Shown: positions 27,509 through 60,491, numbered from the stretch's first letter. The stretch: DNA of 64,000 nt from Candidatus Omnitrophota bacterium (GCA_022703585.1 JAKLDJ010000001.1:440695-504694), one strand, 5' to 3'. Notes: generated by a model not told the origin, from the letters alone. Translations and numbers: made by a program.

Positions 27509-27510
27509 AG

Positions 27511-30338
<2,828 letters not shown>

Positions 30339-31516: not shown

Positions 31517-31574
31517 TCAATCCTCCAAGTACTGTAATAATTATAATTAAAATAGCAGTAATCGTAGCAGGTTT

Positions 31575-31583
31575 TGTGGATAA
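31575..31583. promoter_or_regulatory. Perfect consensus DnaA box (TGTGGATAA) in the dnaA-dnaN intergenic region.
   Basis: gttttgtggataagttgaac read directly. Coordinates ±2. Confidence 0.5.
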
Positions 31584-31662
31584 GTTGAACACACCCAAAA
31601 CCCAAAACCCTTCAACACTTTACCGCAAAAAATCTTGTGAATTCACGGTGCATAAAACTGTG

Positions 31663-33660: not shown

Positions 33661-33688
33661 TTGACTAAAAAAGTCCGTATGTTATAAT
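33661..33688 (+). promoter_or_regulatory. sigma70-type promoter for rpmH (TTGACT, 16-bp spacer, TATAAT).
   Basis: ttgactaaaaaagtccgtatgttataat about 10 nt upstream of the rpmH ATG. Confidence 0.5.
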
Positions 33689-33696
33689 TGACCACT

Positions 33697-33834
33697 ATGA
33701 AAAAACATCTAGCCATTCCTACAAACATAAAAGGCAAACGCCGCCACGGCTTCCGGAAGAGAATGAGCACTTCCGACGGGAGAAAAGTAATCAAGCGCCG
33801 GCGCGCCAAAGGCCGCAAGCGTTTAGCCAAATAA
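33697..33834 (+). CDS. rpmH: 50S ribosomal protein L34.
   Basis: 45 aa [45 protein letters not shown]. Below the 60-aa ORF-track cutoff. Coordinates ±2. Confidence 0.85.
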
Positions 33835-33878
33835 CGCTGCCACGAGCTCGGTATCGCAATCCCATCGCGCGCAAAAAT

Positions 33879-34085
33879 ATGACCCGATTATTCTGTTTGA
33901 TTATTATGTTTTATCAAAAAGTGAGCAGATTTTTCTTGCCTCCCTCCTGCCGTTTCTATCCGTCGTGTTCGCACTATGCGATAGCTGCCGTAAAGAAGCA
34001 TGGATTCTTTAAAGGGCTGGTAAAATCTTTGTGGCGTATTGTGCGCTGCTCCCCCCTGTCTCCCGGCGGATACGATCCCGCATAA
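33879..34085 (+). CDS. yidD: Membrane protein insertion efficiency factor YidD.
   Basis: [11 protein letters not shown] motif. Begins only about 45 nt after rpmH. Confidence 0.85.
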
Positions 34086-34153
34086 TAGCCCTATGAACAT
34101 GCATACTAAAAAAAACCAGAAGCGTATCATTCAACCGGAAAGATTCTAATATC

Positions 34154-35782: not shown

Positions 35783-35975
35783 TGCTCCTAAAAGCATAGA
35801 ATCGGATGGGGCCACAGTTGAGGAAGCTATCGGAAAAGCTCTTAAAATTCTAGGCGTACCAAAAGAAGCTGTCAAGATCAAGATTGTCAGCGAAGAGAAG
35901 ATGGGCTTGTTTGGAATGGCTGGTTCAAAGCCTGCCCGGGTCATTGTTACACTGAAGCCATATAAAGAAAAATAA
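35775..35975 (+). CDS. Jag/KhpB N-terminal-domain-only protein (lacks KH/R3H domains).
   Basis: 66 aa. TVEEAIGKALKILGVPKEAVKIKIVSEEKMGLFG matches the Jag_N signature. Sits at the canonical position after yidC. Confidence 0.55.
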   Translation: MFNAPKSIESDGATVEEAIGKALKILGVPKEAVKIKIVSEEKMGLFGMAGSKPARVIVTLKPYKEK

Positions 35976-36029
35976 TCTTGATTTTTTGTTTTTTGGAATT
36001 AGAATAATAAACAAAAGGACGATTTAAAT

Positions 36030-36045
36030 TGTTTCACGTGAAACA
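36030..36045. promoter_or_regulatory. parS centromere site 1 (TGTTTCACGTGAAACA).
   Basis: 16/16 match to the consensus parS palindrome. Coordinates ±2. Confidence 0.8.
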
Positions 36046-36066
36046 TTAATTGTCCGATAATTGAAA

Positions 36067-36082
36067 TGTTCCACGTGAAACA
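36067..36082. promoter_or_regulatory. parS centromere site 2 (TGTTCCACGTGAAACA).
   Basis: 16-bp palindrome identical to B. subtilis-type parS, 13 nt before the parA ATG. Confidence 0.8.
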
Positions 36083-36094
36083 TTGCCTCGAATT

Positions 36095-36892
36095 ATGGGT
36101 AAAATCATTTCCATCTGCAATCAAAAGGGCGGCACAGGGAAAACCACGACAGCCGTAAACCTTTCTGCCTCATTGGCTTTGCTTGGCAAGCGTGTTCTAC
36201 TGGTTGATTCTGATCCGCAAGGAAATGCCACCAGCGGGCTAGGCGTCAACAAAAATACGATAGAAAAATCCATTTACGATGTCTTGCTGACGCACGCTAC
36301 GGTCAAAGAAATTTCCATTAAGAGTCACATTGCCAATTTGGACATTGCGCCTTGCAATATTAATTTAACCGGCGCAGAGATTGAATTAGTCGGAGCGCTT
36401 TCTCGCGAAACAAGATTGCGCCGCGCGCTTGGAGTAGTAAAAGAAGAATATGATTTTATTTTTATCGATACACCGCCGTCGTTAGGATTAATTACGCTCA
36501 ACGCTTTTGTCGCTAGCGATTCTATTGTCATCCCGATCCAATGCGAATTTTATGCGCTCGAAGGTGTGTCGCAGTTATTGAAAACTATTAATCTAATCCG
36601 GGAAGGACTGAACACCAATCTTGATATCGAAGGCGTTTTGTTGACGATGGCGGATTTCAGGACTAATTTGACGACGGAAGTAATTAACGAAATAAAAAAT
36701 TATTTTAAAGAAAAAGTTTACAAGACTATTATTCCGCGCAACGTGAAATTAAGCGAGGCGCCGAGTTTCGGGAAACCGATTGCGCTGTATGACCGCGCGT
36801 CGATCGGCGCGAAAAAATACGACGAGTTCGCCAAAGAATTTCTCGGGCAATCCGTCGAGAGAACAGAAAACATTTCCGCACACAAAGAATAG
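36095..36892 (+). CDS. parA: Chromosome partitioning ATPase ParA/Soj.
   Basis: Deviant Walker A KGGTGKTTTAVNL. The track's TTG start 12 nt upstream is possible. Confidence 0.92.
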   Translation: MGKIISICNQKGGTGKTTTAVNLSASLALLGKRVLLVDSDPQGNATSGLGVNKNTIEKSIYDVLLTHATVKEISIKSHIANLDIAPCNINLTGAEIELVGALSRETRLRRALGVVKEEYDFIFIDTPPSLGLITLNAFVASDSIVIPIQCEFYALEGVSQLLKTINLIREGLNTNLDIEGVLLTMADFRTNLTTEVINEIKNYFKEKVYKTIIPRNVKLSEAPSFGKPIALYDRASIGAKKYDEFAKEFLGQSVERTENISAHKE

Positions 36893-36901
36893 GGGGGCGT
36901 C

Positions 36902-37753
36902 ATGGAAAATAGGGCTCTGGGCAAAGGCCTTTCCGCACTCATACCCGAAAAGGTCAGTGTCGACCGGCATGAAAGTGTGACCTATGTCAGAATCGCGGAC
37001 CTTAAGGAAAATTCTCTGCAGCCGCGGCTGGATTTTGATAGCGAGAAATTATCCGAGCTGATCGCTTCCATAAAAGAGAAGGGAGTGCTGCAGCCGATTC
37101 TGGTTAGAAAAAAAGGGGAAGGCTATGAGGTTATTGCCGGCGAAAGAAGATTGCGCGCCGCCCGGTCACTTAAGATGGAAGAAGTTCCGGTTGTCGTCAA
37201 AACTGTTAATGACCAAGAAGCTTTAGTGTTGGCATTGGTTGAAAATATTCAGAGAGAAGAGCTGAATGCTATTGAAGAAGCCAAGGCTTTTAAGCGGCTT
37301 ATTGAAGAATTTAATTTTACGCAAGACTATGTGGCGCAATCAGTTGGGAAAGAGAGGACAACGGTTGCCAATATTTTGCGCTTGCTTAAACTTCCCGCGG
37401 AAATGCAAAAATGTATTTCCAACGGAACACTTTCCGTCGGGCACGGACGTGCACTTTTAAGTATTGAGAACGAGAGTTTGCAGAAAAAACTTTTTTCTAA
37501 AACAATCAAGAAGGGGTTATCCGTTCGCGAACTCGAGAATTTAGTCAATGCTTCAAGTGGGCGCGGTGCCAAACGCCGCAAAGAGGGAGCCTCTGCCGGT
37601 AAAGATATTTATCTGGCTTCGCTCGAGGAGGATTTACAAAAGGCCCTCGGGACCAAGGTCCGTATCGAGGCCAAACAGAAGAGGGGCAGAATCGTTATCG
37701 AATATTATTCCAACGAGGATTTGGACCGGATCGCCGGAATTATAAAGAAATAA
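36902..37753 (+). CDS. parB: Chromosome partitioning protein ParB/Spo0J.
   Basis: ParB box GERRLRAA, helix-turn-helix. Confidence 0.92.
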   Translation: MENRALGKGLSALIPEKVSVDRHESVTYVRIADLKENSLQPRLDFDSEKLSELIASIKEKGVLQPILVRKKGEGYEVIAGERRLRAARSLKMEEVPVVVKTVNDQEALVLALVENIQREELNAIEEAKAFKRLIEEFNFTQDYVAQSVGKERTTVANILRLLKLPAEMQKCISNGTLSVGHGRALLSIENESLQKKLFSKTIKKGLSVRELENLVNASSGRGAKRRKEGASAGKDIYLASLEEDLQKALGTKVRIEAKQKRGRIVIEYYSNEDLDRIAGIIKK

Positions 37754-47992: not shown

Positions 47993-49036
47993 ATGTCTTG
48001 GGATTTTGAGAAAATAGAAAACGAAGCAAGACAGGAAATATCCATGGCGCCCGACTCGGCAGCCGTTGAGGCAATTCGCGTTAAGTATCTGGGCCGCAAG
48101 GGCTTAGTATCCGAGATTTATTCGAATCTACCTAATGTCCCCGCAGAGGAAAAGCCCTTAGTCGGAAAAAATGCCAACATCCTAAAGAATAAAGTTACCC
48201 AGTGGCTCCAAGAAAAAGGGCAGACAATCGAAGAGCAAAAACGGCAGCAGTCATCCGCTGAGAAAAGACTCGACGTTACCATGCCCGGAGCCGGCGCAAC
48301 AATCGGCCACCGCCACATCCTGACCCAAACAGTTGATGATATCTGCCGTATTTTTGAGGGGATGGGTTTTGTTACCTTTGAAGGCCCTGAGGTAGAAACG
48401 GAATTTAATAATTTTTCCGCCCTGAATATCCCCATTGATCATCCTTCGCGCGATGCCTTTGATACTTTTTACGTTGACGTCAAAGACCCGGACAAAAAAG
48501 ACAGGTTTCTTTTATTACGCAGCCATACCTCGCCGGCGCAAATCCGGGTTATGAAAAAATACACCCCGCCCTTAGCGGTTATTGTCCCGGGAAAGGTGTA
48601 TCGCCCCGACGCTGTTGACGCCAGCCATTCGTTTATGTTTCATCAGGTAGAAGGGCTTTTGGTTGACGAAAAAGTAAAATTCTCCGATCTTAAAGGGCTG
48701 CTGACGATTTTTTGCCAAAGGCTTTTCGGCGAAGAAATAAAAATGCGTTTTCGCCCGCACTTTTTTCCTTTTACCGAACCTTCCGCTGAAGTAGACATTT
48801 CCTGTTATATCTGCAAAGGAAAGGGTTGCTCGGTTTGCGGCCGCAAAGGCTGGCTCGAGATCTTAGGCTCGGGGATGGTGCATCCGAAGGTTTTTGAGGC
48901 CGTCGGCTATCCTTTAAAGAAATATACCGGGTTTGCCTTTGGCATGGGTGTTGAGCGCATCGCCATGCTTAAATATGGCATTAACGATATCCGCCTGTTC
49001 TTCGAAAACGATACACGGTTTTCGAATCAATTTTAA
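47993..49036 (+). CDS. pheS: Phenylalanine--tRNA ligase alpha subunit.
   Basis: Class II core motifs (FRPHFFPFTEPSAEVD, GFAFGMGVERIAML). Confidence 0.95.
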   Translation: MSWDFEKIENEARQEISMAPDSAAVEAIRVKYLGRKGLVSEIYSNLPNVPAEEKPLVGKNANILKNKVTQWLQEKGQTIEEQKRQQSSAEKRLDVTMPGAGATIGHRHILTQTVDDICRIFEGMGFVTFEGPEVETEFNNFSALNIPIDHPSRDAFDTFYVDVKDPDKKDRFLLLRSHTSPAQIRVMKKYTPPLAVIVPGKVYRPDAVDASHSFMFHQVEGLLVDEKVKFSDLKGLLTIFCQRLFGEEIKMRFRPHFFPFTEPSAEVDISCYICKGKGCSVCGRKGWLEILGSGMVHPKVFEAVGYPLKKYTGFAFGMGVERIAMLKYGINDIRLFFENDTRFSNQF

Positions 49037-49368
49037 TTTCCAGCAATAGCGACTCCCCTGTAAATCAATATACCCCAAGCGCTTATATAATAATTATTGC
49101 GATTTGCTCTTTCGCCAGCGTTTTTATTCAGGTAAGAAAATACGGCAAATTTTCTGAAGAAAATTTGCCGCAAGCGGGGTAAAAAACTTCCTTTAAAAAA
49201 CTGTTTTTGAGGAACCGCTTCCTTAATTTTCCAGGTTACTATTGTTTGCCTCCCCTATATAAGATATACTTTTAATAGAACAATCAGACGCATATTTTCT
49301 TCGGGAAAGGGTAAAATTTTCCGGAGAAGGGCTTTTTTTACCCCAGGGTTTATTTATAGAGGGAAACC

Positions 49369-49398
49369 GGCGGCCCCTGTTGGCAGGGGCCGCCGCCC
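49369..49398 (+). terminator. 12-bp GC hairpin after pheS (possible terminator separating pheS from the array).
   Basis: cggcggcccctg-ttgg-caggggccgccg followed by cccgaaatatttcttt. Confidence 0.4.
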
Positions 49399-49458
49399 GA
49401 AATATTTCTTTAGCGAAGATTTTTCTCCAGTTCTGTTTAGAAACAGAGAGAGGGAAAC

Positions 49459-51324
49459 ATGAAAATAATTCTATCTATTGTTACCGCAATTTTGCTGTTG
49501 GCTGTGTTTTTTTCGCCCGCCTACGCCCAGACCGAGACCATGACGCTGACCACCTACTACCCTGCGCCACTGGGATTCTACAGTCAATTAAGACTGGTGC
49601 CGCGTAGCGCGACCTTGGGCCCGCCGGTTACATGCGATAACGCAAGCAAGGCTTCTTCCTTGGGTGTGATGTGGCTTGACGGGAGTCTGGGAGTCGATAC
49701 TCTTAAAATCTGTCAAGACGATGGCACCGGTACTCTTACCTGGACAACTCTTGGTAGCGGTGGCGGCGGCAGCCTTTGGACCAGAACCGGCAGCAATCTT
49801 TATCCCATCAATATAACCGACAATATCGGCGTGGGAACACAAGCACCCCAAGCTCCCTTGCACATACGGAATGGCACTAACCCTAACATTATTCTGGAAT
49901 ATGACCTCAATCACAAATTAGAATTAACCCATAACGGCACCGATGGTGTTATCACGACAGACACGGGAGCTATTCGATTGGAGCCTAACTTGGGCGTGTC
50001 GACGTTCACCGAAATCGGCGGCACGGGCGGCCTGATGAGCACGTTACTAACGACGCGAGGGACGGCGATTCAAGGAATCTCAGAGCAAACCGCAGGCGCA
50101 GGGGATAATACGGGTGTCTATGGTAGGGCTGGCGGAGGGGGATTGACGGCCACAAAATACGGCGTTCAAGGAATCGCAGCCAGCGATGACGCGGGGCTTA
50201 AGGTCGGTGTTTACGGTGAAGCCGGCGGCATTGACGGACGAAAATATGGGGTCTACGGAAGGGTAGCTGCGGATGACTCATCTGATAAATACGCACTCTA
50301 TGCAAGAACGATAGGAGGAAATGTTAGCGCGAATATATACGGTTTAGATACCTGGGCGTTTGGCAATGCCGGTACGAAGTATGGAGTAAACGCATCGGCT
50401 ACCGGCTTGGGCGGGGATAATTATGCTGTAAAGGGCGGGTCCACCAGTGTGGGGGGCACAACAGGCTATGGCCTTTATGGTTCATCTGTGGGAGCGGGAA
50501 CAAATTATGGTGTCTACGCAACCGCCTCCGGGGGCAGCACCAACTATGCCGGGTATTTTGCCGGCGATTTAGCTATAAGCAACCAACCCGCAGGAACGCA
50601 CTCAAGACTTTTTATTAACGGCGATGGCAAGTTGCAAATCACATCCTCCAACAGCCTTAAGAATCGACTGGTTATTGGGGAGCCCCTTGCCAGCATGTCC
50701 ATGGCTAACGCTGCGGGTATGGACATCGGGACTCCCGGGTCACCCGGGGGCGCTAACGCCTTTATAACCCTGGGCACAAACAGCACTAATGAATATGGGT
50801 ACCTGGGGTGGATAGGTACTAACCCCGGGTTCGAATATATTTCACTCCTTTCGACGGGAGGTATTAATTTGATTTCCAGGCTTCCGACCAGTGTCCAGGA
50901 AAACCGTTTGCGTATTACAAACGACGGCCATATTTACCTTGACACGCTTATTTCCGGGGCCGGTAACGCCTCGATACGATACAATACGACGACAAAAGAA
51001 ATAACCTATACTCCGCTTGTTTCTTCAAAGCGCTATAAGAAAGATATCGCAAATCTCGAGTTTGATACGGACGGATTGTATTCTTTGCGGCCCGTTTCGT
51101 TTACGTGGAAAGAGAGCAGCATACGGGATTTTGGCCTTATCGCTGAAGAGGTGGATGAGGTCTTGCCCTCGCTGGTGGCCTATGATGCTCAAGGCAGGCC
51201 CGATAGCGTGGCTTATGACAAGTTACCCGTCCTACTTTTAGTCGAAATGCAAAAACTGCGCGCGGAAAACCGCGCGCTGCAAGAACGCGTCGAGAAGTTA
51301 GAGGCTGCGGTCGGCGCAGAATAA
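49459..51324 (+). CDS. Secreted fibre-like paralog 1 (621 aa): signal peptide, conserved family N-domain, Gly/Tyr-rich repeats, C-terminal Peptidase-S74 intramolecular chaperone domain (as in phage tail fibre/endosialidase).
   Basis: Signal peptide with AYA|QTE cleavage site. N-domain QTETMTLTTYYPAPLGFYSQLRLVPR...LKICQDDGTG...NLYPINITDNIGVGTQAP. YGVxG repeats. C-terminus SSKRYKKDIANLEFDTDGLYSLRPVSFTWK...GLIAEEVDEVLPSLVAYD...coiled coil = S74 signature. Confidence 0.8.
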   Translation: MKIILSIVTAILLLAVFFSPAYAQTETMTLTTYYPAPLGFYSQLRLVPRSATLGPPVTCDNASKASSLGVMWLDGSLGVDTLKICQDDGTGTLTWTTLGSGGGGSLWTRTGSNLYPINITDNIGVGTQAPQAPLHIRNGTNPNIILEYDLNHKLELTHNGTDGVITTDTGAIRLEPNLGVSTFTEIGGTGGLMSTLLTTRGTAIQGISEQTAGAGDNTGVYGRAGGGGLTATKYGVQGIAASDDAGLKVGVYGEAGGIDGRKYGVYGRVAADDSSDKYALYARTIGGNVSANIYGLDTWAFGNAGTKYGVNASATGLGGDNYAVKGGSTSVGGTTGYGLYGSSVGAGTNYGVYATASGGSTNYAGYFAGDLAISNQPAGTHSRLFINGDGKLQITSSNSLKNRLVIGEPLASMSMANAAGMDIGTPGSPGGANAFITLGTNSTNEYGYLGWIGTNPGFEYISLLSTGGINLISRLPTSVQENRLRITNDGHIYLDTLISGAGNASIRYNTTTKEITYTPLVSSKRYKKDIANLEFDTDGLYSLRPVSFTWKESSIRDFGLIAEEVDEVLPSLVAYDAQGRPDSVAYDKLPVLLLVEMQKLRAENRALQERVEKLEAAVGAE

Positions 51325-51421
51325 TCGCATTGTTATCCTCTCGCGGAGATATTCAGAATTGGTGACGCTTCCTCCGAGCTATCGGTAAAGACGGATATTT
51401 CTTTAGAAAGAAGGATCGGGC

Positions 51422-53032
51422 ATGAAAAAACTACGAATTATTATTCTTCTCGTCGTGATGGCGGCTATGGTCGCGGTTACCGCCTACGCCCAGACCGAGA
51501 CCATGACGCTGACGACATATTATCCGGCGCCACTGGGATTTTATAGCCAGTTAAGGCTGGTACCGCGTGACGGGGCCGCCTTGGGCCCACCGGTTACATG
51601 CGATAATGCAAGCCGGATTTCTGCCCTGGGCGTGATGTGGCTTGACTCAAGCTTGGGAGTTGATACTCTTAAAATCTGTCAAGACGACGGCACAGGTACG
51701 GGCACTCTTGCCTGGATGTCTGTTGGCAGTGGTGGTGGCGGAAGTCTTTGGGCCAGAACCGGAAGCAATCTTTATCCAACTAACATAGGAGACAATGTTG
51801 GGGTTGGTACTGCTGCGCCGGAACAAAAATTACACATCGAGGGTGCTTTTCCGACACTTCTTATCAAGGGTACCGGAGCTCCGGGCCTTGTTCTTCGCGA
51901 TACTGATGCTGCCGGCGGTAGCTGGCCGTATATAGCCTTCAGCGGAAATGAAGGCGCGGCTATTACTGGCGATGACAGCTCGCAGGAAATATTCGGGTTT
52001 TATAGCGCTTTCACGGATCCCCGTAGCAACGATGCGGAAATTCGTATCCACGGCAAAGGCGCTGGCTGGGGCAACTATTTATCTTTAACTCACGACGGCA
52101 CCGACGGAATTATTTCAACCGATATTGGTAATATTGCCATTAATCCAGAGCGTGGTGCTAGCCCAAAAGGTGTTGCCATTGGTGTACCGGATGCAAGCTT
52201 AAACAACGCTCAGGCTCTTACTATCGGTAACAATGTTAATGCAGTCGATTGGAGAAACAAACTCGGGTACAACAATATCCGCATTGGTGGCGCCGGAGCC
52301 TTGCCGAATAATTGGCCGATGATCATTTTTGATGATGCAAACCAGGCCAATACACTCTGGTCCCTGTCTAATACTGAGCATTCCAACTACAATGATTTTC
52401 TTATAGAAAAAATCGATACCACATCAGGTATTGGTTCTGCTGTTCTGCTATTAGGAGGTGCCAATAGTTTATCAGCGCTGTTTGGGGTGAGCGGTCCCTG
52501 GGGATTATGGGGTCATAAATTCGAAGGACTTCAGTCAGAGGTCCGGATGGACTCTACCCAACTAATGAATACCTCGAACGTCCGCATAGGCAGAATCGGC
52601 AACGTCAATAACGGCAATGGCGCGGTTATATTAGAAACAACGAGAAACGGCGGCCATCAGGTATTAATGAATATTGATGACAATGGAGTCTTGCAGGTCC
52701 AAGGGGCACTTGCGAGCACGTCATCCAGTTCGCAGTCGCTTACGAGTACGTCATTCAGTTCGAGACGGACATACGGCGTTTATATTGTATCCGATGGCGG
52801 TACCGAAGAATGGAAGACTATCGGCGCATGGGATATGTGTTTTCTTGGGACGCATGCGGAAAATCATTCCCTGGTTGGAGGTCAGTGTGATGTTTATAGC
52901 GATCAACTCCCGCCACCCGACAATACGATCTCGTTTAACCCAAATACGCAACCGACTTGGAAAATACATGCTAAGCGGAATGGAAGCAACGGCACAATAG
53001 CTTGTAGGGCAACCTGCGTGAATTTTCGATAA
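51422..53032 (+). CDS. Secreted fibre-like paralog 2 (536 aa): same N-domain, shared middle module with paralog 5, Cys-containing C-terminal knob, no S74 domain.
   Basis: AYA|QTETMTLTTYYPAPLGFYSQLRLVPR... Module LHIEGAFPTLLIKGTGAPGLVLRDTDAAG...AEIRIHGK...YLSLTHDGTDG. C-terminus ...GTIACRATCVNFR. Confidence 0.8.
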   Translation: MKKLRIIILLVVMAAMVAVTAYAQTETMTLTTYYPAPLGFYSQLRLVPRDGAALGPPVTCDNASRISALGVMWLDSSLGVDTLKICQDDGTGTGTLAWMSVGSGGGGSLWARTGSNLYPTNIGDNVGVGTAAPEQKLHIEGAFPTLLIKGTGAPGLVLRDTDAAGGSWPYIAFSGNEGAAITGDDSSQEIFGFYSAFTDPRSNDAEIRIHGKGAGWGNYLSLTHDGTDGIISTDIGNIAINPERGASPKGVAIGVPDASLNNAQALTIGNNVNAVDWRNKLGYNNIRIGGAGALPNNWPMIIFDDANQANTLWSLSNTEHSNYNDFLIEKIDTTSGIGSAVLLLGGANSLSALFGVSGPWGLWGHKFEGLQSEVRMDSTQLMNTSNVRIGRIGNVNNGNGAVILETTRNGGHQVLMNIDDNGVLQVQGALASTSSSSQSLTSTSFSSRRTYGVYIVSDGGTEEWKTIGAWDMCFLGTHAENHSLVGGQCDVYSDQLPPPDNTISFNPNTQPTWKIHAKRNGSNGTIACRATCVNFR

Positions 53033-53048
53033 TATGCCCTGAAGGACG

Positions 53049-54458
53049 GTGAGGATGAGAAAAACCTTTATGATCTTTCTTGGCGCGGTTTTAGCGATGA
53101 CAGCAACCTTTGCCCTCGCCCAAACCGAATCCATGACACTGACAACGTATTACCCTGCGCCACTGGGATTTTATAGCCAGTTAAGGCTGGTACCGCGTGA
53201 CGGGGCCGCCTTGGGCCCACCGGTTACATGCGATAATGCAAGCCGGATTTCTGCCCTGGGCGTGATGTGGCTTGACTCAAGCTTGGGAGTTGATACTCTT
53301 AAAATCTGTCAAGACGATGGCACTGGCACTCTCACCTGGGTCCCTGTTGGCGGCGGCGGTGGCGGTAGCAGTTTTTGGAATAGAACCGGTACTAATCTTT
53401 ATCCAGTCAACATAGACGACAATATCGGCATCGGGACAAATGCCCCGGCTACTAAGTTGCATGTCCAGGGAGTCGGAGACCCGACAGTAACCATCGAAGT
53501 TACGGGTGGCGGCATGGGACGGCCCACGGTTCAATTTCTCGGTAATAACGGCGTTATTGCAGCTGATGTTGGCGGAAAGGTTGCTATTACCAACAGCACT
53601 GCTATTGATGTTCCGTCCGACTTTGATGAAAATCAGGTCCAGGGTCTCACGATTGTAGGCAGAGCGACACCGATCGATGAAAATATGCATTTGACACACT
53701 CGAACGTTCGTATAGGCAGAGGAACCCTGATGAACGGGCCCATGATACTACTGGATAGCACATCGTCTGACCGCACCTGGTTTATAGAGGCAAATAAAGT
53801 GAATGGTTGGAACGGAGGCGCCACAACGTCTGACCTGACCCTTGGTTACCAGATGATTGGCGGCGCTACCTACAATGCCATGCACATCGGCGGGCCGAAT
53901 AGAAGAGCCGTGCTTTTTGGCTGGGACTCGGGCAATCCCGCCAGCCGTTCTTTTAGCGGGGTGCAATCAGAAGTGACTTTTAGTCCGGCAGCAGCGTTGA
54001 TGAATTCGGGCAATGCGCGTATCGGTGTTGTCCGGTCAGGCAGCCGCTCCGGCGGGGCGCTCATTCTGGAAAGTTATGATGCCACAAATCCCGCGCTCCA
54101 CCCCCAATTTCGGATCTATGCGGATGAAATCGGACAACTCAATTTCGGCCCTGCGGGAGCGATCAGCAAATTCGACGGTAACGTTTGGATTACTAATAGT
54201 TTAAATGTTTCTGGGGCGGGGATGGGACAGCAAACAACTCTGCAGAACACGACGGTGAACGGCGAGCTAACTGTTCCGTTCAATCGTTGGGGAACAGACC
54301 CTGGCGCTGGATCAAACGTAGCGATACCATCAAGTTGTGTTAGGGCTGCTAATAGTGCCGAACAAGGTTGTCAATGTCCCGACGGATCTTACATGGTCGG
54401 TTTCTCTATAACTAACGGCACCAATAATGGTTTTTCAATTTACTGCAGGCGACTCTAA
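53049..54458 (+). CDS. Secreted fibre-like paralog 3 (469 aa): same N-domain (about 160 nt nucleotide-identical to paralog 2), divergent body, Cys-containing C-terminal knob.
   Basis: ALA|QTESMTLTTYYPAPLGFYSQLRLVPRDGAALGPPVTCDNASRISALGVMWLDSSLGVDTLKICQDDGTG. C-terminus ...EQGCQCPDGSYMVGFSITNGTNNGFSIYCRRL. Confidence 0.8.
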   Translation: MRMRKTFMIFLGAVLAMTATFALAQTESMTLTTYYPAPLGFYSQLRLVPRDGAALGPPVTCDNASRISALGVMWLDSSLGVDTLKICQDDGTGTLTWVPVGGGGGGSSFWNRTGTNLYPVNIDDNIGIGTNAPATKLHVQGVGDPTVTIEVTGGGMGRPTVQFLGNNGVIAADVGGKVAITNSTAIDVPSDFDENQVQGLTIVGRATPIDENMHLTHSNVRIGRGTLMNGPMILLDSTSSDRTWFIEANKVNGWNGGATTSDLTLGYQMIGGATYNAMHIGGPNRRAVLFGWDSGNPASRSFSGVQSEVTFSPAAALMNSGNARIGVVRSGSRSGGALILESYDATNPALHPQFRIYADEIGQLNFGPAGAISKFDGNVWITNSLNVSGAGMGQQTTLQNTTVNGELTVPFNRWGTDPGAGSNVAIPSSCVRAANSAEQGCQCPDGSYMVGFSITNGTNNGFSIYCRRL

Positions 54459-54476
54459 ACTTTATCGAGGTGACAT

Positions 54477-56459
54477 ATGGTTGGATTAAAATATCTGATT
54501 ATCTTGGCCGTTCTTCTCATAGGAATCCCCGCCCACGCTCAAACCGAATCCATGACTATGACCACCTATTACCCGGCGCCGCTGGGATTTTATAATCAGA
54601 TGCGTTTGGTGCCTCGTATCGCGGCACCCGGCCCATGTGACCTTACCGATGCGACCTCCTCTCCAGGCCTGATGTGGTTTGACCAGGCAATCAATACTCT
54701 TAAAATCTGTCAAGACGATGGCACCGGCGCAGGTAGTATTGCCTGGATGTCTCTTGGCGGCAGCGGTGGAGGTGGCGGTCTTTGGACCAGAACGGGCAAC
54801 AATCTTTATCCAGCCAACATCGGCGACAGGGTCGGCATCGGGACCGACAATCCCGGCGTGACTCTGGATGTGGTGGGGCAAACCGGGATACGCATTAACG
54901 ATAATATTGATAATTGGCCGGCGCGGATCAGAATGGTTGATACAGTGGTCGAGGGAGCCGGAACAAGAGACGATTTGATGATGGAGACGGACGGCGGCTT
55001 ATTTGTTCAACTGGACAATAATAATAACGGGATTTCGGGCATTGTGGGTTTCGGCATTCTGGACGGGCAAAACAACGTGCTGGTGAACGTGCTCGAGGAT
55101 AATGGCAATGTCGGCATCGGGACAGGGATTGACGCCCCTACTGCCAAGTTGCAAGTTAAAGATGGAGTTGTGCTTTTTGACGGCGATATCGGATCGACTC
55201 CCGTCTCCGGCGTCGGAACACGCTTCATGTGGATACCCGAAAAACATGCGTTACGGGCAGGCCACGTGGCTGAGGAACGGCCTTTGGTGTGGGATGATGC
55301 CAACATAGGGATGAATTCATTCGCGGCCGGCCTTAATCCGGAAGCGAGCGGAGCTCAAAGTATAGCGCTTGGTCAGAACGTAACGGCGCAAGGCCAGCGG
55401 TCGGTAGCGCTAAACAGCGGAACCCAGGCGCTGGGCCTGGGCAGTCTTGCGACGGGAGGCGTCACACAAGCCACGGCAGATTGGAGTACGGCAATGGGGT
55501 TCCGCGCAAGAGCCTTGCATGAAAAGTCATTTGCCATTGGCCTAGATGTGGAAGAAAGCGAACAATGCGATACGACAGCAGAGGGGCAACTTATGCTGTG
55601 CGGTGAAGAGGTTGTTCTGGGCAATCTCAGTTTCGACGGTGCCATATTCCGGCAAGGTGCAACGCTGTATGGAAATCAGGCGGCAACGCATGTGAACTTA
55701 GGTACCGCCGGCACAACCGGTGATGAATTTCTAAATAATACCTATTGTACCGTTTCGGGAGGGCGTAGCAATCAGGCAAAAGGAAGCTTTTCGACTGTCG
55801 CGGGAGGTGAGAACAACTACACTCTTTTTAATGCGACCCATGGTACGGTCTCGGGAGGACGGTGGAATTCAGCTCAAGGTGATTATGCGACTTCTCCCGG
55901 AGGCTGGGATAACGATGCTATGGGCCAATATTCGTTTGCAGCCGGACGAGAGGCCAAGGCCGATGATGTGGGGTCTTTTGTCTGGTCCGCCAGCAGCTCA
56001 GGTGCGGAGTGCCATTCCAGCGGTGACTACAGCTTTACGGCCTGTGCGCCGGGAGGGGTTTTCTTGAGGGGGGAAGTTTTTTTGCCGAACATCCATATCG
56101 GTCCGCCGCCCGGTTCGATGTTTCAATATAGCCTGTACATGAATGAGAATTTTCAAGTATGGAGGATGGGATCCTCGAAGCGCTACAAAAAAGACATCAG
56201 TGATTTGGAAATAAATTCTGAGAAAATCTATGGATTGCGTCCGGTGTCGTTTACCTGGATCAGCGGTGGCCAGCGGGATTTTGGCCTTATTGCCGAAGAA
56301 ACAGAAGCTGTTATGCCGGAATTAGTATCGTTTGACAAAGACGGCACTCCCGAGAGCGTGCGTTATGACCAGTTGCCGGTTTTGTTGCTTAACGAAATCA
56401 AGAAACTCAACGAAAGAATAACCGTGCTTGAGCAACGGCTGGAGATATACGAGAAATAA
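54477..56459 (+). CDS. Secreted fibre-like paralog 4 (660 aa): same N-domain, divergent body, C-terminal Peptidase-S74 chaperone domain.
   Basis: AHA|QTESMTMTTYYPAPLGFYNQMRLVPR. C-terminus SSKRYKKDISDLEINSEKIYGLRPVSFTWISGGQRDFGLIAEETEAVMPELVSFD...LEQRLEIYEK. Confidence 0.8.
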   Translation: MVGLKYLIILAVLLIGIPAHAQTESMTMTTYYPAPLGFYNQMRLVPRIAAPGPCDLTDATSSPGLMWFDQAINTLKICQDDGTGAGSIAWMSLGGSGGGGGLWTRTGNNLYPANIGDRVGIGTDNPGVTLDVVGQTGIRINDNIDNWPARIRMVDTVVEGAGTRDDLMMETDGGLFVQLDNNNNGISGIVGFGILDGQNNVLVNVLEDNGNVGIGTGIDAPTAKLQVKDGVVLFDGDIGSTPVSGVGTRFMWIPEKHALRAGHVAEERPLVWDDANIGMNSFAAGLNPEASGAQSIALGQNVTAQGQRSVALNSGTQALGLGSLATGGVTQATADWSTAMGFRARALHEKSFAIGLDVEESEQCDTTAEGQLMLCGEEVVLGNLSFDGAIFRQGATLYGNQAATHVNLGTAGTTGDEFLNNTYCTVSGGRSNQAKGSFSTVAGGENNYTLFNATHGTVSGGRWNSAQGDYATSPGGWDNDAMGQYSFAAGREAKADDVGSFVWSASSSGAECHSSGDYSFTACAPGGVFLRGEVFLPNIHIGPPPGSMFQYSLYMNENFQVWRMGSSKRYKKDISDLEINSEKIYGLRPVSFTWISGGQRDFGLIAEETEAVMPELVSFDKDGTPESVRYDQLPVLLLNEIKKLNERITVLEQRLEIYEK

Positions 56460-56501
56460 CATTGCTAGTGCGATAAGAAAGATTTTAAAAAAGTAAAAAC
56501 C

Positions 56502-58241
56502 ATGAAGAAACTATTTCTCGCCGTTTTAATTTCGACATTGGTGACAACTGTCACTCATGCCCAGACCGAGTCTATGAATCTAACCACCTACTACCCGGCG
56601 CCGATGGGAAATTATAACCAGTTGCGCTTGGTCCCGCGCGGAGGTGCACCGGTAACCTGCAATAACGCCAATCCGGATTCCGCGGGTGTGATGTGGTTTA
56701 ATCAGGCAACCAATAGTTTTCATATCTGTCAAGACGATGGCACAGGTGTTATTACCTGGGTATCTATCGGCGGCGTTGGCGGCGGCAATCTTTGGGCCAG
56801 AACCGGCAATAATCTTTATCCAGCCAACCTAGGCGATAATGTCGGCATCGGAACCCAAACACCGCAACAAAAACTGCATATCGAAGGCGCTTTTCCAATA
56901 CTGCTTATCCGCGGTACCGGAGCCCCGGCCCTTGTCCTTGACGATACCGATGCTGCCGGCAGCCGGCCTTTTATAAAATTCGGCGGAAACAGCCTGGGAG
57001 CTTTCATCGGACAAGACTCCTGGCATCAGACATTTGAATTTTATAGCGACTTTCAGCTTACCCGCGCTCACGACGCGGAAATCCGCGTCCACGGCAAAGC
57101 CCCCGGCGGCAGTTGGGATAGATATTTATCATTAACCCACGACGGGACAGACGGGTACATTGAAACAGATGTCGGCGACATTGTTATTAATCCGAAAGAG
57201 ACGGATGTAGCCATACCCGAGCCGGCATTATCCATTGATGCTGCCTCAAAAAATATAGGAATACGCACCAGCGACGTGACTCCTCAGGCAACTGTTCAAA
57301 TCGGCAATAACCTGGGTTTTGGATGGGCTCCGCATGCCCTGACTGTCGGAGGTGCGGGTTCGGTCGGGGGCTCGGTGGCGGTCGGTGTAAACAGCAGCAA
57401 AATGGGGGTTTTCCAGCATTCTGCCGCAGGCACTTCGACCGACGTTAGCTCTACGGATGACCTGCGCTTAGGGGCAGCCGGTTCTATTTATCAATCTACG
57501 GCAGGATTAAATCGCATGAAAATCGATACCGGCGGTTCTATTGCTATGTATGCGAATGATGGCGCACTAACGGCTTTTCAAATGGCCAGTACAGGGTCAA
57601 TGTTTTTTCAGGGCCCGGCTTCTTTTAGCCAGCCTCTGAGTATCGGCAACAGTATTGACGATGACGTGGATGTTAGCTTGGGAGAGCACAATACTGTTTG
57701 TTGGGATTCGAAATGTATTCGCGGGATCAATTCGCCCGGCGGCAGCTGGCTTCAGTTCGGGCACTTTGTTTCCGGGGCATGGGATACCGTAATGTCTTTG
57801 GCGACTGCGCCGTCTACAGGATTGGGTATTAGCGGCTCTTTGAATATATCGGGCACAGCCACTAAACCGGGCGGCGGGCCCTGGAGCGCTTCTTCTGATG
57901 CCCGTCTTAAAAAGAATATTGCGTCGATCGATAATGCACTTGACACCATGCTTTCTCTTCGCGGAGTTACCTTTGAGTGGAGAGAACCGGAAAAGCAAGG
58001 CAATCTGACCGGGCCGCAGATGGGCCTGATTGCCCAAGAAGCAGAAAAGGTGTTTCCTCAGTGGGTGACGACCGGAGAAGACGGTTATAAGATTTTGTCG
58101 ATCCGGGGATTCGAAGCCCTCGCCATCGAGGCCATGCGCGACATGAAAAAAGAGATCGATCAGCTAAAACAGGAAAATCAAGAGTTGCGCCGGGAACTTG
58201 ATACGCTTAAGAAAGTTCCCGACGGAGATTCTCCTATTTAG
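56502..58241 (+). CDS. Secreted fibre-like paralog 5 (579 aa): same N-domain, paralog-2-type middle module, C-terminal Peptidase-S74 chaperone domain.
   Basis: THA|QTESMNLTTYYPAPMGNYNQLRLVPR. Module LHIEGAFPILLIRGTGAPALVLDDTDAAG...AEIRVHGK...YLSLTHDGTDG. C-terminus SSDARLKKNIASIDNALDTMLSLRGVTFEWRE...GLIAQEAEKVFPQWV...coiled coil. Confidence 0.8.
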   Translation: MKKLFLAVLISTLVTTVTHAQTESMNLTTYYPAPMGNYNQLRLVPRGGAPVTCNNANPDSAGVMWFNQATNSFHICQDDGTGVITWVSIGGVGGGNLWARTGNNLYPANLGDNVGIGTQTPQQKLHIEGAFPILLIRGTGAPALVLDDTDAAGSRPFIKFGGNSLGAFIGQDSWHQTFEFYSDFQLTRAHDAEIRVHGKAPGGSWDRYLSLTHDGTDGYIETDVGDIVINPKETDVAIPEPALSIDAASKNIGIRTSDVTPQATVQIGNNLGFGWAPHALTVGGAGSVGGSVAVGVNSSKMGVFQHSAAGTSTDVSSTDDLRLGAAGSIYQSTAGLNRMKIDTGGSIAMYANDGALTAFQMASTGSMFFQGPASFSQPLSIGNSIDDDVDVSLGEHNTVCWDSKCIRGINSPGGSWLQFGHFVSGAWDTVMSLATAPSTGLGISGSLNISGTATKPGGGPWSASSDARLKKNIASIDNALDTMLSLRGVTFEWREPEKQGNLTGPQMGLIAQEAEKVFPQWVTTGEDGYKILSIRGFEALAIEAMRDMKKEIDQLKQENQELRRELDTLKKVPDGDSPI

Positions 58242-58252
58242 TTTCTTGCCAA

Positions 58253-58282
58253 AACTCTTCGCAGGCGAGAGATTTTTTTGTT
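58253..58282 (+). terminator. Intrinsic terminator after the paralog array.
   Basis: ctcttcgc-agg-cgagag followed by attttttt. Confidence 0.45.
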
Positions 58283-58451
58283 TTATTTGAATATTTTCCT
58301 TGCATTCTGCTTTCAGCCGCCCCCGCGAGAGGCTGTGGCTCTTATTGCGTGCCACCGCGCACTCTTTCCATAAAATATTTCCTTTTCAATTCCCCTTCGA
58401 TACGCTAATATAGAATGTCACTTTCTTCTTGATCCAAAAAATAATTTTAAA

Positions 58452-60491
58452 ATGAAATTATCCTATAACTGGCTTAAAAATTATATCGCGGTCAACGTGA
58501 ACGCCGAAACCCTAGCCCACAAACTCACCATGGCGGGCTTGGAGGTTAAGGCGATTGACACGGTTGACAGCGACAGCGTATTTGAAATAGAAATCACGCC
58601 TAACCGTCCGGATTGCTTAAGCGTCCTGGGCATTGCCCGTGAGGCGTCGGCGATTTTTAATAAGCCTCTCAAGATCCCCGCTGTTAAGAACTTAAAACTT
58701 CCCAAACAAAAATGTGACCTGGCGATCCTGGATAAAAAGGATTGTTTGCGCTATATCGGCTGTCTCATAAATAATGTTTCGGTCAGGCAATCCCCTGAAT
58801 GGATCAAAAAACCTTTAACCGCCGTAGAACTGCGCACCATTAACAACGTTGTCGATATTACGAATTTTGGCCTTATGGAAACCGGCCAGCCCATGCACGC
58901 CTTTGACTTTGACAAGTTAGCCGGGGGAAAGATTATTGTCCGCCGCGCCAAGGAGGGCGAAAAAATCATTACCATCGATGGTATTGAGAGAAAACTTGAT
59001 CCCTCGATTTTGGTTATTGCCGACGAGAAAAAGACAGTGGCCATTGCCGGTATCATGGGCGGGAAGGAAACCGAGGTTACCGAATCGACAAAAAATATTC
59101 TGTTGGAAAGTGCCTACTTTGAACCGATTTTGATAAGGCGCGCCGGGCGTAAGCTGGGCTTGAGCACGGACGCGTCGTATCGTTTTGAGCGCGGGGTTGA
59201 CATGGAGGGGGTTGAGCAGGGTGCCCGGCGCGCCACTGCGCTTATCTGCCAAGAAGCGGGCGGCAGCATTCAGGGGTATTTTGATTTATATCCCGGTAAA
59301 CGAAAAGATGTAAAACGCCAAACCAGCATTACCAAAAATCAAATTGACGAATTTTTAGGTGCCCCCATTTCGCTTGAGCGGGGCAAGGCTATTTTAAACA
59401 GGCTCGGGTTTAAAACCGCCAACGGCGCCAAAGGTGCGTTAAAGATTTCTATTCCCCCTTTTAGAAACGATGTCAAAGGCGATGTCGATATCATCGAGGA
59501 GATTGCCCGGGTCGTGGGTTATGATAATTTGCCCGTGACCTTGCCCGAGGTAAAATTTTCTAATGTGGCTGTGAATCCGAATCGGATTCTAAGAAAGAGG
59601 GTAACGGACAGCCTTCTGGCCTTAGGGCTTAACGAAGCCGTCAGCTATTCGATGACCAGCCGAAAGAATATTGAGGCCGCAAAGCTTGACTCTGCGCTTG
59701 CCGTCAAAGTCAAAAACCCCTTAACCCTCGAGCAGGAATGTTTAAGATTTTCGATGCTGCCCAGCTTATTGGAACTGATATCGATTAATCTCAACCGCGG
59801 GCAGAGGGATATAAAATTCTTCGAGGCCGGAAAAACCTATTTTACCGACGGAGAGAAAGAAACCTTGGGGATTATCATGTCGGGGCACCTATCGGTCGAC
59901 TGGCGAAAAGGCATCAAGGCCGAGGCAGATTTTTATGACATCAAGGGCGTGATTGAAAATACCCTCGAAAAAATCGGCGTTACACCTGTTGAATGGGTAC
60001 CGAACAAGTCTCCCGTATTCGAACCGGGGCAGGGTGCCGAGATTATTTTAAATGGCGAGGCTGTCGGCGCCTTAGGGGCAATAGCCGCCGAGATTTTGCA
60101 CCGGTGGGACATAAAGCAAAAGGGTATTTTGTTTGCCGAACTTGATTTGGAAACAATATATGCCCAGGCGGCTAAAAAAACCGCCGGACGAAAATACTGC
60201 CCCCTGCCGACTTTTCCGGCGGTGGTACGAGATTTAAGCCTGGCTATTAAAAGCGAAGTCAGTTTTCAACAGGTCCGCGAAACAATCCAAAAGACCGCCG
60301 GAGACCTTTTAGCCTCGGTTAAATTAATAGAACAGTATTTAGGCGAAAAAATTCCGCCGGGTCAGCGCGGATTAGTCCTTTCCTTGACTTATCAATCCTC
60401 GGCACGGACGCTGCGCGAAGATGAAGTGAATCAAGCTCACGAGAAAATCTGCAAAGCCCTGATTGACACCTTCGGCGCTGTCCGACGATAA
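58452..60491 (+). CDS. pheT: Phenylalanine--tRNA ligase beta subunit (short form lacking the EMAP-like tRNA-binding insert).
   Basis: MKLSYNWLKNYI... B1 N-terminus, B3/4 and B5 domains, C-terminal anticodon-binding. 679 aa. Confidence 0.95.
   Translation: MKLSYNWLKNYIAVNVNAETLAHKLTMAGLEVKAIDTVDSDSVFEIEITPNRPDCLSVLGIAREASAIFNKPLKIPAVKNLKLPKQKCDLAILDKKDCLRYIGCLINNVSVRQSPEWIKKPLTAVELRTINNVVDITNFGLMETGQPMHAFDFDKLAGGKIIVRRAKEGEKIITIDGIERKLDPSILVIADEKKTVAIAGIMGGKETEVTESTKNILLESAYFEPILIRRAGRKLGLSTDASYRFERGVDMEGVEQGARRATALICQEAGGSIQGYFDLYPGKRKDVKRQTSITKNQIDEFLGAPISLERGKAILNRLGFKTANGAKGALKISIPPFRNDVKGDVDIIEEIARVVGYDNLPVTLPEVKFSNVAVNPNRILRKRVTDSLLALGLNEAVSYSMTSRKNIEAAKLDSALAVKVKNPLTLEQECLRFSMLPSLLELISINLNRGQRDIKFFEAGKTYFTDGEKETLGIIMSGHLSVDWRKGIKAEADFYDIKGVIENTLEKIGVTPVEWVPNKSPVFEPGQGAEIILNGEAVGALGAIAAEILHRWDIKQKGILFAELDLETIYAQAAKKTAGRKYCPLPTFPAVVRDLSLAIKSEVSFQQVRETIQKTAGDLLASVKLIEQYLGEKIPPGQRGLVLSLTYQSSARTLREDEVNQAHEKICKALIDTFGAVRR

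Follow-up and report, generated by a model that had tools for sequence, protein, structure and literature searches.

A tandem array of five putative tail-fibre-like surface proteins with mosaic shafts and tips between pheS and pheT of an Omnitrophota bacterium

Our analysis concerns a window of 64,000 nucleotides, the whole stretch of DNA that was analysed, from Candidatus Omnitrophota bacterium. ORF calls place five tandem genes, P1 to P5, on the plus strand at 49459-58241, and these encode proteins of 469-660 aa (Table 1). The surrounding gene order is thrS-infC-rplT-trkA-trkA-trkH-x-pheS-(array)-pheT-rarA, some 16-25 kb from dnaA/oriC. The leader between pheS and P1 (RNA fold z-score = -4.06) has one hairpin at 49295-49330 followed by a T-run, a terminator-like match, and a second at ~49369-49395; an Rfam search of this leader found no Rfam family or riboswitch upstream of P1.

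Table 1. Genes and features of the pheS-pheT slot, in positions of the window.
Feature	Position	Strand	Description
pheS	47993..49036	+	upstream border of conserved slot
pheS-P1 intergenic leader	49037..49458	+	422 nt, AT-rich, two strong hairpins
P1	49459..51324	+	621 aa
P1 parts			signal peptide aa 1-22; N-domain aa 23-136; middle-module remnant aa 152-176; shaft aa ~177-521, rich in Gly and with YG-containing repeats; S74 chaperone aa 522-621
P2	51422..53032	+	536 aa
P2 parts			signal peptide aa 1-22; N-domain aa 23-139; middle module aa 140-245 (51839-52156); P3-like body about aa 246-406; unique 4-Cys tip aa 407-536
Gene-conversion tract, P2 copy	51527..51687	+	161 nt, identical to P3 53157-53317
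P3	53049..54458	+	469 aa; public gene call begins at 53055
P3 parts			signal peptide; N-domain aa 24-139; P2-like body about aa 179-342; Cys-knob tip aa ~425-469
Gene-conversion tract, P3 copy	53157..53317	+	161 nt
P4	54477..56459	+	660 aa
P4 parts			signal peptide; N-domain aa 21-132; YadA-head/UspA1-like repeats (sub-threshold) in the shaft; S74 chaperone aa 566-660
P5	56502..58241	+	579 aa
P5 parts			signal peptide; N-domain aa 20-127; middle module about aa 128-233 (56883-57200); unique shaft; S74 chaperone aa 465-579
pheT	58452..60491	+	downstream border of conserved slot

All five proteins begin with an n-h-c signal peptide whose A-x-A end precedes QTE. Directly after it stand the consensus QTE[ST]M.LTTYYPAP.G.Y..[LM]RLVPR and a common N-domain of ~115 aa, which is 64-86% identical in amino acids among the paralogs and has two conserved Cys. 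The most conserved element of the family is the arm T-x-T-T-Y-Y-P-A-P-x-G-x-Y, located 2-5 residues past the signal-peptide cleavage site. In an AF2 monomer model of moderate confidence (pLDDT 74.6) the N-domain is beta-rich and this N-terminal arm is unstructured. Pfam and NCBIfam hold no model for the N-domain; more generally, searches of P1-P5 against Pfam, NCBIfam and PHROGs recognised only S74 and weak YadA-like repeats, and neither the N-domain, the middle module nor the tips. We also considered and rejected a relationship to PQQ or designer beta-propellers, whose blades the N-domain profile matches, taking the match as a short beta-hairpin resemblance summed over repeats.

Relatives of the N-domain numbered 110 in a genome scan, almost all of them from Omnitrophota or Elusimicrobiota, and a protein search returned 213 N-domain proteins, every named one of which is called 'hypothetical'. 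Most database members are 130-210 aa long, and proteins of this size are no less compatible with a pilin-like subunit than with a fibre adhesin. The tips seen in 105 members include S74 (13), beta-roll (6), YadA head (4), tail collar, C1q and dockerin, and one family member has a gp53-like/H-type lectin tip. Judged from these sequences, the T-x-T-T-Y-Y-P-A-P-x-G-x-Y N-terminus marks out a large family of Omnitrophota and Elusimicrobiota that is unannotated and whose tips are swappable.

Downstream of the N-domain, P2 and P5 share a middle module of ~105 aa (P2 aa 140-245 against P5 aa 128-232; 67/103 identities, phmmer E ~1e-37), of which P1 has just the last ~25 aa (aa 152-176, LTHNGTDGVITTDTGAIRLEPN; E 4e-4). 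Comparison of the paralogs did not find the module in P3 or P4 and, the P1 remnant aside, it is confined to P2 and P5. This agrees with the original prediction, which had given P2 and P5 an extended middle module that the others lack and P1 a related piece. A body module that was absent from that prediction's list is common to P2 (aa 250-406) and P3 (aa 183-342; E 1e-11). Compared as sequences, these modules are similar between paralogs far above chance. The middle module has 176 matches among 1.84 billion representative proteins, its position varying from one to another; among the 150 of these 176 matches listed, 3 have the TTYYP N-terminus and 35 have S74, and the module is present in proteins with unrelated N-termini.

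It had also been claimed that P1, P4 and P5 end in S74 chaperones and that P2 and P3 end instead in short Cys-containing stretches, and both classes of C-terminus are indeed found. Pfam Peptidase_S74 (PF13884, gathering cut-off 22 bits) scores above threshold in P1 (522-573, 41.2 bits), P4 (566-617, 44.4 bits) and P5 (465-522, 63.2 bits), and Pfam gives no Peptidase_S74 match in P2 or P3. The catalytic Ser-Lys dyad motif, S[SD].R.K, opens the domain, as SSKRYK at aa 522 of P1 and aa 566 of P4 and as SDARLK at aa 465 of P5, and the chaperone is predicted to release itself by autoproteolysis at this conserved residue (P1 S522, P4 S566, P5 S465). The nearest solved S74 relatives are phage S16 gp37 (6F45, E 9e-12), the T5 L-shaped fibre (8HQZ) and MyRF (7DC3), and the S74 of P5 belongs to another lineage than those of P1 and P4. 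The C-terminus of P2 reads ...IACRATCVNFR and that of P3 ...GCQCPDGSYMVGFSITNGTNNGFSIYCRRL, the knob of P3 having the pattern C..C.CP.G..YC.RL. A protein search found no detectable homologue of the P2 tip, and therefore nothing backs a lectin function for it. Alignments of the P2 and P3 tips lack usable depth. All the sequence features of the original prediction lie where it had placed them.

That prediction further held that the module combinations defy a single tree and imply domain-level recombination, and three lines of evidence uphold this. First, P2 and P3 share an identical tract of 161 nt whose flanks are 47-85% identical, and the run of 60 concordant polymorphic sites that it contains was equalled in 0 of 5000 permutations. 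Second, P2 is a mosaic: the 5' part of its N-domain is P3-like (68/69 aa), its middle module P5-like, its body P3-like and its tip unique. Third, the domain-wise phylogenies proposed as a check are strongly incongruent, since in neighbour-joining trees with outgroups, built from alignments of ~110-135 columns, the N-domains of P1, P4 and P5 fall together (98% bootstrap), whereas the S74 of P5 joins proteins of other genomes (95%). By identity, the S74 of P5 is 55% identical to that of L026, from another genome, and only ~30% to those of P1 and P4, yet the N-domain of P5 shares 64-69% with the window paralogs as against 37% with L026. In a second pheS-pheT slot, L004, two paralogs agree in every one of their first 1575 nt, after which they are unrelated, with S74 in one only, and these twins differ only in their final ~215-245 aa; the paired paralogs of L007 and of L046 can be aligned (50-55% identity) just over the N-terminal ~205-265 aa, beyond which they diverge. 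For part of the incongruence, concerted evolution that homogenises the 5' ends is a better explanation than tip swapping alone.

Could it be that the modules never moved, that P1-P5 are old, differently built paralogs with gene conversion acting only on the 5' anchor, and that their 3' parts merely look shuffled? The sole directly visible tract does sit inside the conserved N-domain. Moreover, the window N-domains form one clade (98% bootstrap) and the S74 domains are anciently split, and at the other loci the L007 and L046 pairs are alike just N-terminally and the L004 prefix is identical. We nevertheless consider this account unlikely, since the alternation of P3-like, P5-like and again P3-like stretches in P2 continues beyond the N-domain and cannot arise without one or more exchanges in the 3' part, since the middle module occurs on unrelated N-termini, and since the L004 twins are distinct at their C-terminal ends only. 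Plain duplication and divergence with differential deletions from a long all-module ancestor, without recombination, could suit the presence and absence of modules alone (the remnant in P1, the missing middle module in P3 and P4), but it is already contradicted by the exact P2/P3 tract and by the opposite affinities of the two ends of P5, and we give it hardly any credence.

A diversity-generating retroelement and an invertase or shufflon were also tried as origins and rejected: there is no reverse transcriptase or recombinase among the window ORFs scanned, the only repeats within 49000-58500 are the paralogous 5' regions, and no template/variable repeat pair was found. As for strain variants of the array, a search of other assemblies yielded nothing but contigs interrupted within the repeated 5' regions.

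How might such proteins be used by the cell? The mosaic adhesive trimer (MAT) fibre family of Bdellovibrio bacteriovorus consists of proteins with a signal peptide, a conserved beta-rich N-domain of ~130 aa, a trimeric fibre and swappable S74 or non-S74 tips (Caulton et al. 2024, PMC10769870). By analogy, we propose that P1-P5 are probably Sec-exported, cell-surface trimeric fibre adhesins, and we infer that they form trimers, are displayed on the surface, are anchored there and bind ligands; the term 'receptor-binding proteins' would likewise follow from their architecture, and the diversifying selection named in the original prediction is putative. The N-terminal module, comprising a free arm, the two-Cys beta-rich domain and then the first fibre repeat NVGIGT..P..KLH, would dock every paralog onto the same cell-surface partner. 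The shaft would be made of variable, interchangeable modules of triple-beta-helix type leading to a variable distal tip, which in P1, P4 and P5 would be folded by the C-terminal S74 intramolecular chaperone and which in P2 and P3 would end in a small Cys knob. The repertoire probably originated when genes in the pheS-pheT slot were duplicated in tandem and then recombined homologously in two directions, with gene conversion keeping the 5' anchor region alike and with exchange or acquisition of 3' modules giving varied combinations of shaft and tip. The array could then serve as an adhesin set for different host or prey surface structures, in the manner of MAT fibres and phage tail fibres.

The likeness to MAT proteins is one of architecture as regards the signal peptide directly followed by a conserved beta-rich N-domain, and it extends to the presence of both S74 and non-S74 classes of C-terminus, to chimeric tips (to which the wider Omnitrophota family adds C1q/TNF-like and lectin domains), to the number of paralogs and to a host organism thought to attack other cells. 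The long fibre with VG.GT..P...L capping-loop repeats also brings a sequence match to the Bdellovibrio Bd2133 fibre structure 8OND (E ~4e-5). P5 aa 88-278 matches it at E 4.8e-5 over three 8OND copies of VGIGT..P..KLH, the second of these alignments continuing into the first residues of the middle module, and the N-domain profile matches it at 3.9e-5 and, more weakly, 8OJN (Bd3182) and 8OML (Bd1334). PDB sequence searches with P2 and P3 gave no match. The capping-loop motif V-G-x-x-x-x-P-x-x-x-L is present, but it occurs in phage S74 proteins as well and is not MAT-specific. A 72-aa piece of Bd2133 from the 8OND alignment returned an 85-aa fragment in a protein search and, in a metagenome scan, generic '...GIKFPDG...' fibres, none with a TTYYP head. 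The two sets of proteins differ in phylum, Omnitrophota versus Bdellovibrionota, and the genome scan and protein search with the N-domain had no Bdellovibrio protein among their matches. P1-P5 are also shorter (469-660 aa versus ~1000 aa), their genes are clustered as one tandem array inside the pheS-pheT slot, and their family has many very small members of 130-210 aa.

Two other systems invite comparison. Trimeric autotransporter adhesins such as YadA and UspA1 resemble P1-P5 in the weak YadA-head/UspA1-like repeats of the P4 shaft, which stay below Pfam gathering thresholds, in the clear YadA_head matches of other family members and in forming trimeric surface fibres, as P1-P5 would. They differ in that a C-terminal beta-barrel for translocation or anchoring is absent from P1-P5, whose conserved and presumably anchoring end is N-terminal; Pfam and NCBIfam gave no YadA_anchor match in P1-P5, and P4 ends in S74. 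In Neisseria, the pilE/pilS paralog arrays generate surface variation by gene conversion. These too are tandem or dispersed paralogs that have a conserved 5' part, variable 3' parts and patchy tracts of identity, but here there is no sign of a programmed donor/expression-locus system, and each of P1-P5 is a complete gene that has a start codon and encodes a signal peptide of its own.

P1-P5 might instead be subunits of a polymeric appendage, a pilus or thread, in which the arm TLTTYYPAP.G.Y acts as donor strand or propeptide in head-to-tail assembly and the long paralogs are tip or accessory subunits. An arm that is the most conserved element, closely follows the cleavage site and has no structure in the monomer model would fit such a role, as would the small size of most database members, the conserved Arg after the arm (LRLVPR) and a gene for a C25 (gingipain-type) peptidase in the window. 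However, this gene is ~30 kb off, genes for an usher, chaperone, sortase or pilus assembly neither flank the array nor recur at other loci, and S74 chaperones are known only on trimeric fibres and spikes (PMC10769870). We regard polymeric subunits as quite improbable.

Phage S74 tail fibres and tailspikes (K1F endosialidase, T5 pb1, S16 gp37) share with the window proteins the S74 domain with its Ser/Lys motif, shaft modules like triple beta-helices, a conserved N-terminus with a variable C-terminus, and mosaic evolution. Is the array, then, a prophage or tailocin remnant, tail-fibre genes left in the chromosome? PHROGs tail-fibre families do match the C-terminal parts, and NCBI names P1, P4 and P5 'tail fiber domain-containing protein'. 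Such an origin is nonetheless extremely improbable. Apart from one weak match in the N-terminal region of P4 (E 0.007), the PHROG matches are limited to S74 and the adjacent C-terminal fibre, whereas Sec signal peptides are present on all five proteins and the chromosomal neighbours are housekeeping genes. Among the ORFs scanned in the 64-kb window, none was a phage, integrase, baseplate or sheath gene. The pheS-pheT position is kept across deep divergence: among loci picked for containing a family gene, the slot holds 1-2 such genes in 10 other, deeply diverged genomes (PheS identity 54-68%). The N-domain is encoded on none of 2.9 million viral contigs and has no viral structural match in BFVD. 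A role as phage receptor-binding proteins is ruled out by the signal peptides, the housekeeping-operon slot and the absence of the N-domain from viral contigs.

More generally, it is conceivable, if tentative, that the arm, alone or with the two-Cys domain, is the signature of an undescribed surface-appendage system of Omnitrophota and Elusimicrobiota, a universal N-terminal docking or polymerisation module that bears tail-fibre-type shafts and tips (S74, lectin, C1q, collar, Cys knobs) and whose founding copy lies in the pheS-pheT operon phylum-wide.

The Omnitrophota are uncultured, ultra-small and thought to live on other cells. They have been proposed as predators or parasites (PMC10066038), and the literature on them compared here discusses giant ORFs and pili, not fibres. 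An exported, tail-fibre-like family with exchangeable tips would supply concrete host-recognition candidates for the phylum, and it would extend the idea of cellular tail-fibre adhesins, established for Bdellovibrio MAT, to a second, unrelated lineage. The evolutionary mechanism is directly visible in the sequence: within one fixed slot of the chromosome, 5' ends are homogenised and 3' modules exchanged. Should the arm indeed mark a surface-appendage system, this window would be its most expanded example seen here, and fibres, beyond giant proteins and type IV pili, would be host- or prey-recognition organelles of these nanobacteria.

Our analysis indicates that P1-P5, five tandem paralogs separated by gaps of just 16-97 nt (see table), encode exported proteins with a common N-terminal module and tail-fibre-type shafts, whose modules form a mosaic generated by recombination and whose genes occupy a fixed chromosomal slot. 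Four of them (P1, P2, P4 and P5) exactly match proteins from metagenome-assembled genomes (MAGs) of Candidatus Omnitrophota (HOW35345-49 and others), where P2 is listed as a 'hypothetical protein' and the other three carry the name 'tail fiber domain-containing protein'. All five open with a signal peptide of classical type (A-x-A ends listed as AYA, AYA, ALA, AHA and THA), and the mature N-terminus reads QTE[ST]M.LTTYYPAP.G.Y..[LM]RLVPR. Next comes the N-domain of about 115 aa, for which neither Pfam nor NCBIfam has a model. Two of its Cys and some of its Trp residues are conserved, and it contains a run of Gly as well as the motif LW.RTG.NLYP.N..D.[VI]G[VI]GT..P...L. Its pairwise amino-acid identity among the paralogs is 64-86%, the closest pair being P2/P3, followed by P1.

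Features of the window and of two loci in other genomes (L-numbers denote loci of other genomes or assemblies)
Feature	Position (nt)	Strand	Description
Hybrid histidine kinase	565-5697	-	1710 aa; receiver domain, many PAS domains, GAF domain
T2SS/T4P-type ATPase	12305-13696	-	PilZ domain
Peptidase C25 (gingipain-type)	16938-19724	-	928 aa
Origin region	24972-37753	- and +	dnaA, dnaN, gyrB, gyrA (-); yidC, parA, parB (+)
Leader upstream of P1	49280-49460		MFE -66.5 kcal/mol, z -4.06
Fibre array	49459-58241	+	five tandem ORFs: P1 621 aa, P2 536 aa, P3 469 aa, P4 660 aa, P5 579 aa
Blade-like N-domain segment	51488-51838 and equivalents		profile positions 36-64
Identical tract, P2 copy	51527-51687	+	161 nt
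Identical tract, P3 copy	53157-53317	+	161 nt
Tandem family pair, L004	9273-13971		other Omnitrophota MAG, pheS-pheT slot
Alternating genes, L001	6919-14320		TTYYP and Cys-rich repeat proteins
Loci with an occupied slot			L004, L021, L026, L029, L032, L040, L046, L054, L066, L076

Within the N-domain, the segment G.[LM][WY]........L..C.DD....W matched beta-propeller blades of PDB entries, both PQQ-like and designer (Cake/Scone), when HMM scores were summed, which suggests a blade-like beta-meander. The arm that precedes the N-domain could also be read differently, as the donor strand or propeptide of a pilus-like polymer. Many members of the family have the size of a pilin, the monomer model shows the arm as disordered, and there is a conserved Arg after it; we nevertheless regard such a polymer as rather improbable. 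Gingipains process type V pilins after Arg, and the window encodes a C25 peptidase of this type; tying that enzyme to the conserved Arg (LRLVPR) just after the arm is speculative.

Scanning genomes at one per species, we found 110 relatives at 78 loci, almost all of them in Omnitrophota (some records with the public title Planctomycetales); Elusimicrobiota and a few other lineages have mainly the first ~20 residues in common. Because 105 aligned members show no variation in its P, G and Y and at least 90% conservation of T.TTYY.AP, T-x-T-T-Y-Y-P-A-P-x-G-x-Y, which sits 2-5 residues past the signal-peptide cleavage site, can be taken as the family hallmark. Searching 5.8 billion proteins with a profile gave 213 matches, every named one 'hypothetical'; the motif TTYYPAP is absent from the searchable literature, and the papers on the phylum that we consulted make no mention of S74, fibres or tail fibres. 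Family genes commonly stand in tandem arrays of 2-4. By Pfam, the 105 members carry S74 (13), antifreeze-type beta-rolls (6), YadA heads (4), Gly_rich_2 (3) and, once each, phage tail collar, C1q, dockerin and Hint, while one small member has a gp53-like/H-type lectin tip; the C-terminal parts of the family are thus interchangeable. At L001, L014 and about 5 more loci, TTYYP proteins of ~190 aa alternate with signal-peptide-bearing, Cys-rich repeat proteins 1000-1270 aa in length, which may be a partner family.

Past the N-domain P1-P5 diverge, yet not independently. As originally predicted, P2 and P5 have in common a middle module of ~105 aa (P2 aa 140-245, P5 aa 128-232; 67/103 identities, phmmer E ~1e-37), of which P1 retains only the last ~25 residues. 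P2 and P3 share a body (aa 250-406 and 183-342, respectively; E 1e-11). The C-terminal Peptidase_S74 intramolecular chaperone scores above the Pfam threshold in P1, P4 and P5 and was not found by Pfam in P2 or P3, again as expected, and the Cys-containing ends of the latter two read exactly as first quoted. The S74 ends of P1 and P4 are close kin (E ~1e-30) and that of P5 is distant from both (E ~1e-5); all three have the catalytic Ser/Lys motif intact (SSKRYK in P1 and P4, SDARLK in P5). The P3-type knob, C..C.CP.G[YS]...YC.[KR]L at the extreme C-terminus, recurs in one Elusimicrobia member and one 209-aa metagenomic member.

With P2 aa 140-536 as the query, an exhaustive HMMER search detected no relative of the P2 tip and returned 176 proteins, 132 with E <= 1e-10, nearly all matching just the first ~120 query residues, at positions from the N-terminus to past residue 1100 of the matched protein. 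Among the 150 matches listed, 3 have a TTYYP head and 35 an S74 end. Judged by this distribution, the middle module is a widespread mobile fibre element. Five of the matched proteins, otherwise unrelated fibre proteins (P0140, P0179, P0192, P0212 and P0266), end in a '...GICPDGWHLP...' domain, which we take to resemble the Fibrobacter-type (FISUMP) lectin-like domain; such ends would be further tip diversity on one shaft module.

Could simple duplication and divergence, with deletions and no recombination, have produced this pattern? Several results contradict it. P2 and P3 have a tract of 161 nt without differences, flanked by signal-peptide DNA just upstream that is ~47% identical and by downstream sequence of ~72-85% identity; its 60 concordant polymorphic sites form a run that 0 of 5000 site permutations reach, and a weaker signal links P1 and P2 (run of 16, p ~0.004). 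P2 is itself a mosaic, with the 5' part of its N-domain nearest P3 (68/69 aa), a middle module nearest P5 to which P3 has nothing comparable, a body nearest P3 and a unique tip. Finally, the domain-wise phylogenies called for by the original prediction (neighbour-joining, 300 bootstraps, outgroups from other genomes) conflict: the N-domain tree unites P1, P4 and P5 with 98% bootstrap, whereas in the S74 tree that clade receives 0%, P1 and P4 pair at 100% and P5 groups at 95% with L026 and L030, loci of other genomes. The P5 S74 is 55% identical to L026, 46% to L030 and only ~30% to P1 and P4; for the N-domains of P5 and L026 the figure is no more than 37%. Because these three independent lines agree, duplication and divergence with deletions are insufficient, and the predicted domain-level recombination is borne out. 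Both 5' homogenisation (concerted evolution) and 3' module exchange appear to operate, their relative shares being inseparable in these sequences. In L004, the two genes of the tandem pair agree at every one of their first 1575 nt (525 aa; 0 mismatches) but are unrelated from there on, an S74 end in one twin facing a non-S74 tip in its partner; this is a second, cleaner case of the same process.

The gene order in the window is thrS-infC-rplT-trkA-trkA-trkH-orf-pheS-[P1-P5]-pheT-rarA, and the genes that most often lie beside family members elsewhere, at the other loci, are pheS, infC, pheT, trkH, trkA, rplT, thrS and rarA. Of 11 other loci with pheS, 10 have 1-2 family genes (148-769 aa) directly after it, and wherever the locus also includes pheT they are enclosed by the two, so that the slot looks conserved across the phylum, although the sample is biased, its loci having been chosen for containing a family gene. 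The exception is L077, where pheS adjoins pheT with no insert; the gap between the two genes ranges from 16 nt there to 9415 nt in the window, the largest array seen, and PheS of these other genomes shares only 54-68% identity with the window's PheS. A prophage remnant is contradicted by several results, among them that no phage, integrase, reverse-transcriptase or invertase genes were found among the window ORFs scanned.

Since the dnaA-parB genes and a switch in GC-skew sign at ~33-34 kb (GC minimum 0.37 at 34-36 kb) lie 16-25 kb upstream, the array is close to the origin and, on the leading strand, co-oriented with replication. The P1 leader has an unusual degree of structure, with a hairpin and U-run followed by an 11-bp G+C-rich hairpin ~60 nt before the start codon, and has no Rfam match. 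In other assemblies or samples of the same organism (L164-L166), contigs stop within the 5' region of either P3 or P4, as expected if assemblers break at repeated N-domain DNA; this also means that public MAGs often have the array in pieces.

We compare the array with the mosaic adhesive trimer (MAT) fibres of Bdellovibrio bacteriovorus (PMC10769870). The Bd2133 fibre structure 8OND aligns with the N-domain end and middle-module start (whole-sequence E 4.8e-5; NVGIGTQTPQQKLHIEGAFPILLIRGTGAPALVLDDTDAA versus LVGINTAAPLQKLHVENGN-MVITGT-APAYQLKENDTT), and besides this fibre-repeat match every architectural feature that could be tested is common to both. By analogy, the array would work like the MAT family, a likeness of architecture and fibre repeat, the decisive criterion of N-domain homology apart. 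The array is properly framed as a surface organelle of a bacterium and not as part of a phage, and P1-P5 are best read as cellular, exported, tail-fibre-like mosaic adhesins.

From what is known of S74 proteins and MAT fibres, we propose that the fibre proteins trimerise and that the S74 domains of P1, P4 and P5 would help folding and then self-cleave, so that a new distal end becomes exposed. Through their common N-terminal module all paralogs would dock to one cell-surface partner, and the differing distal ends may bind differing ligands on other cells, in a phylum whose members have been proposed as predators or parasites (PMC10066038).
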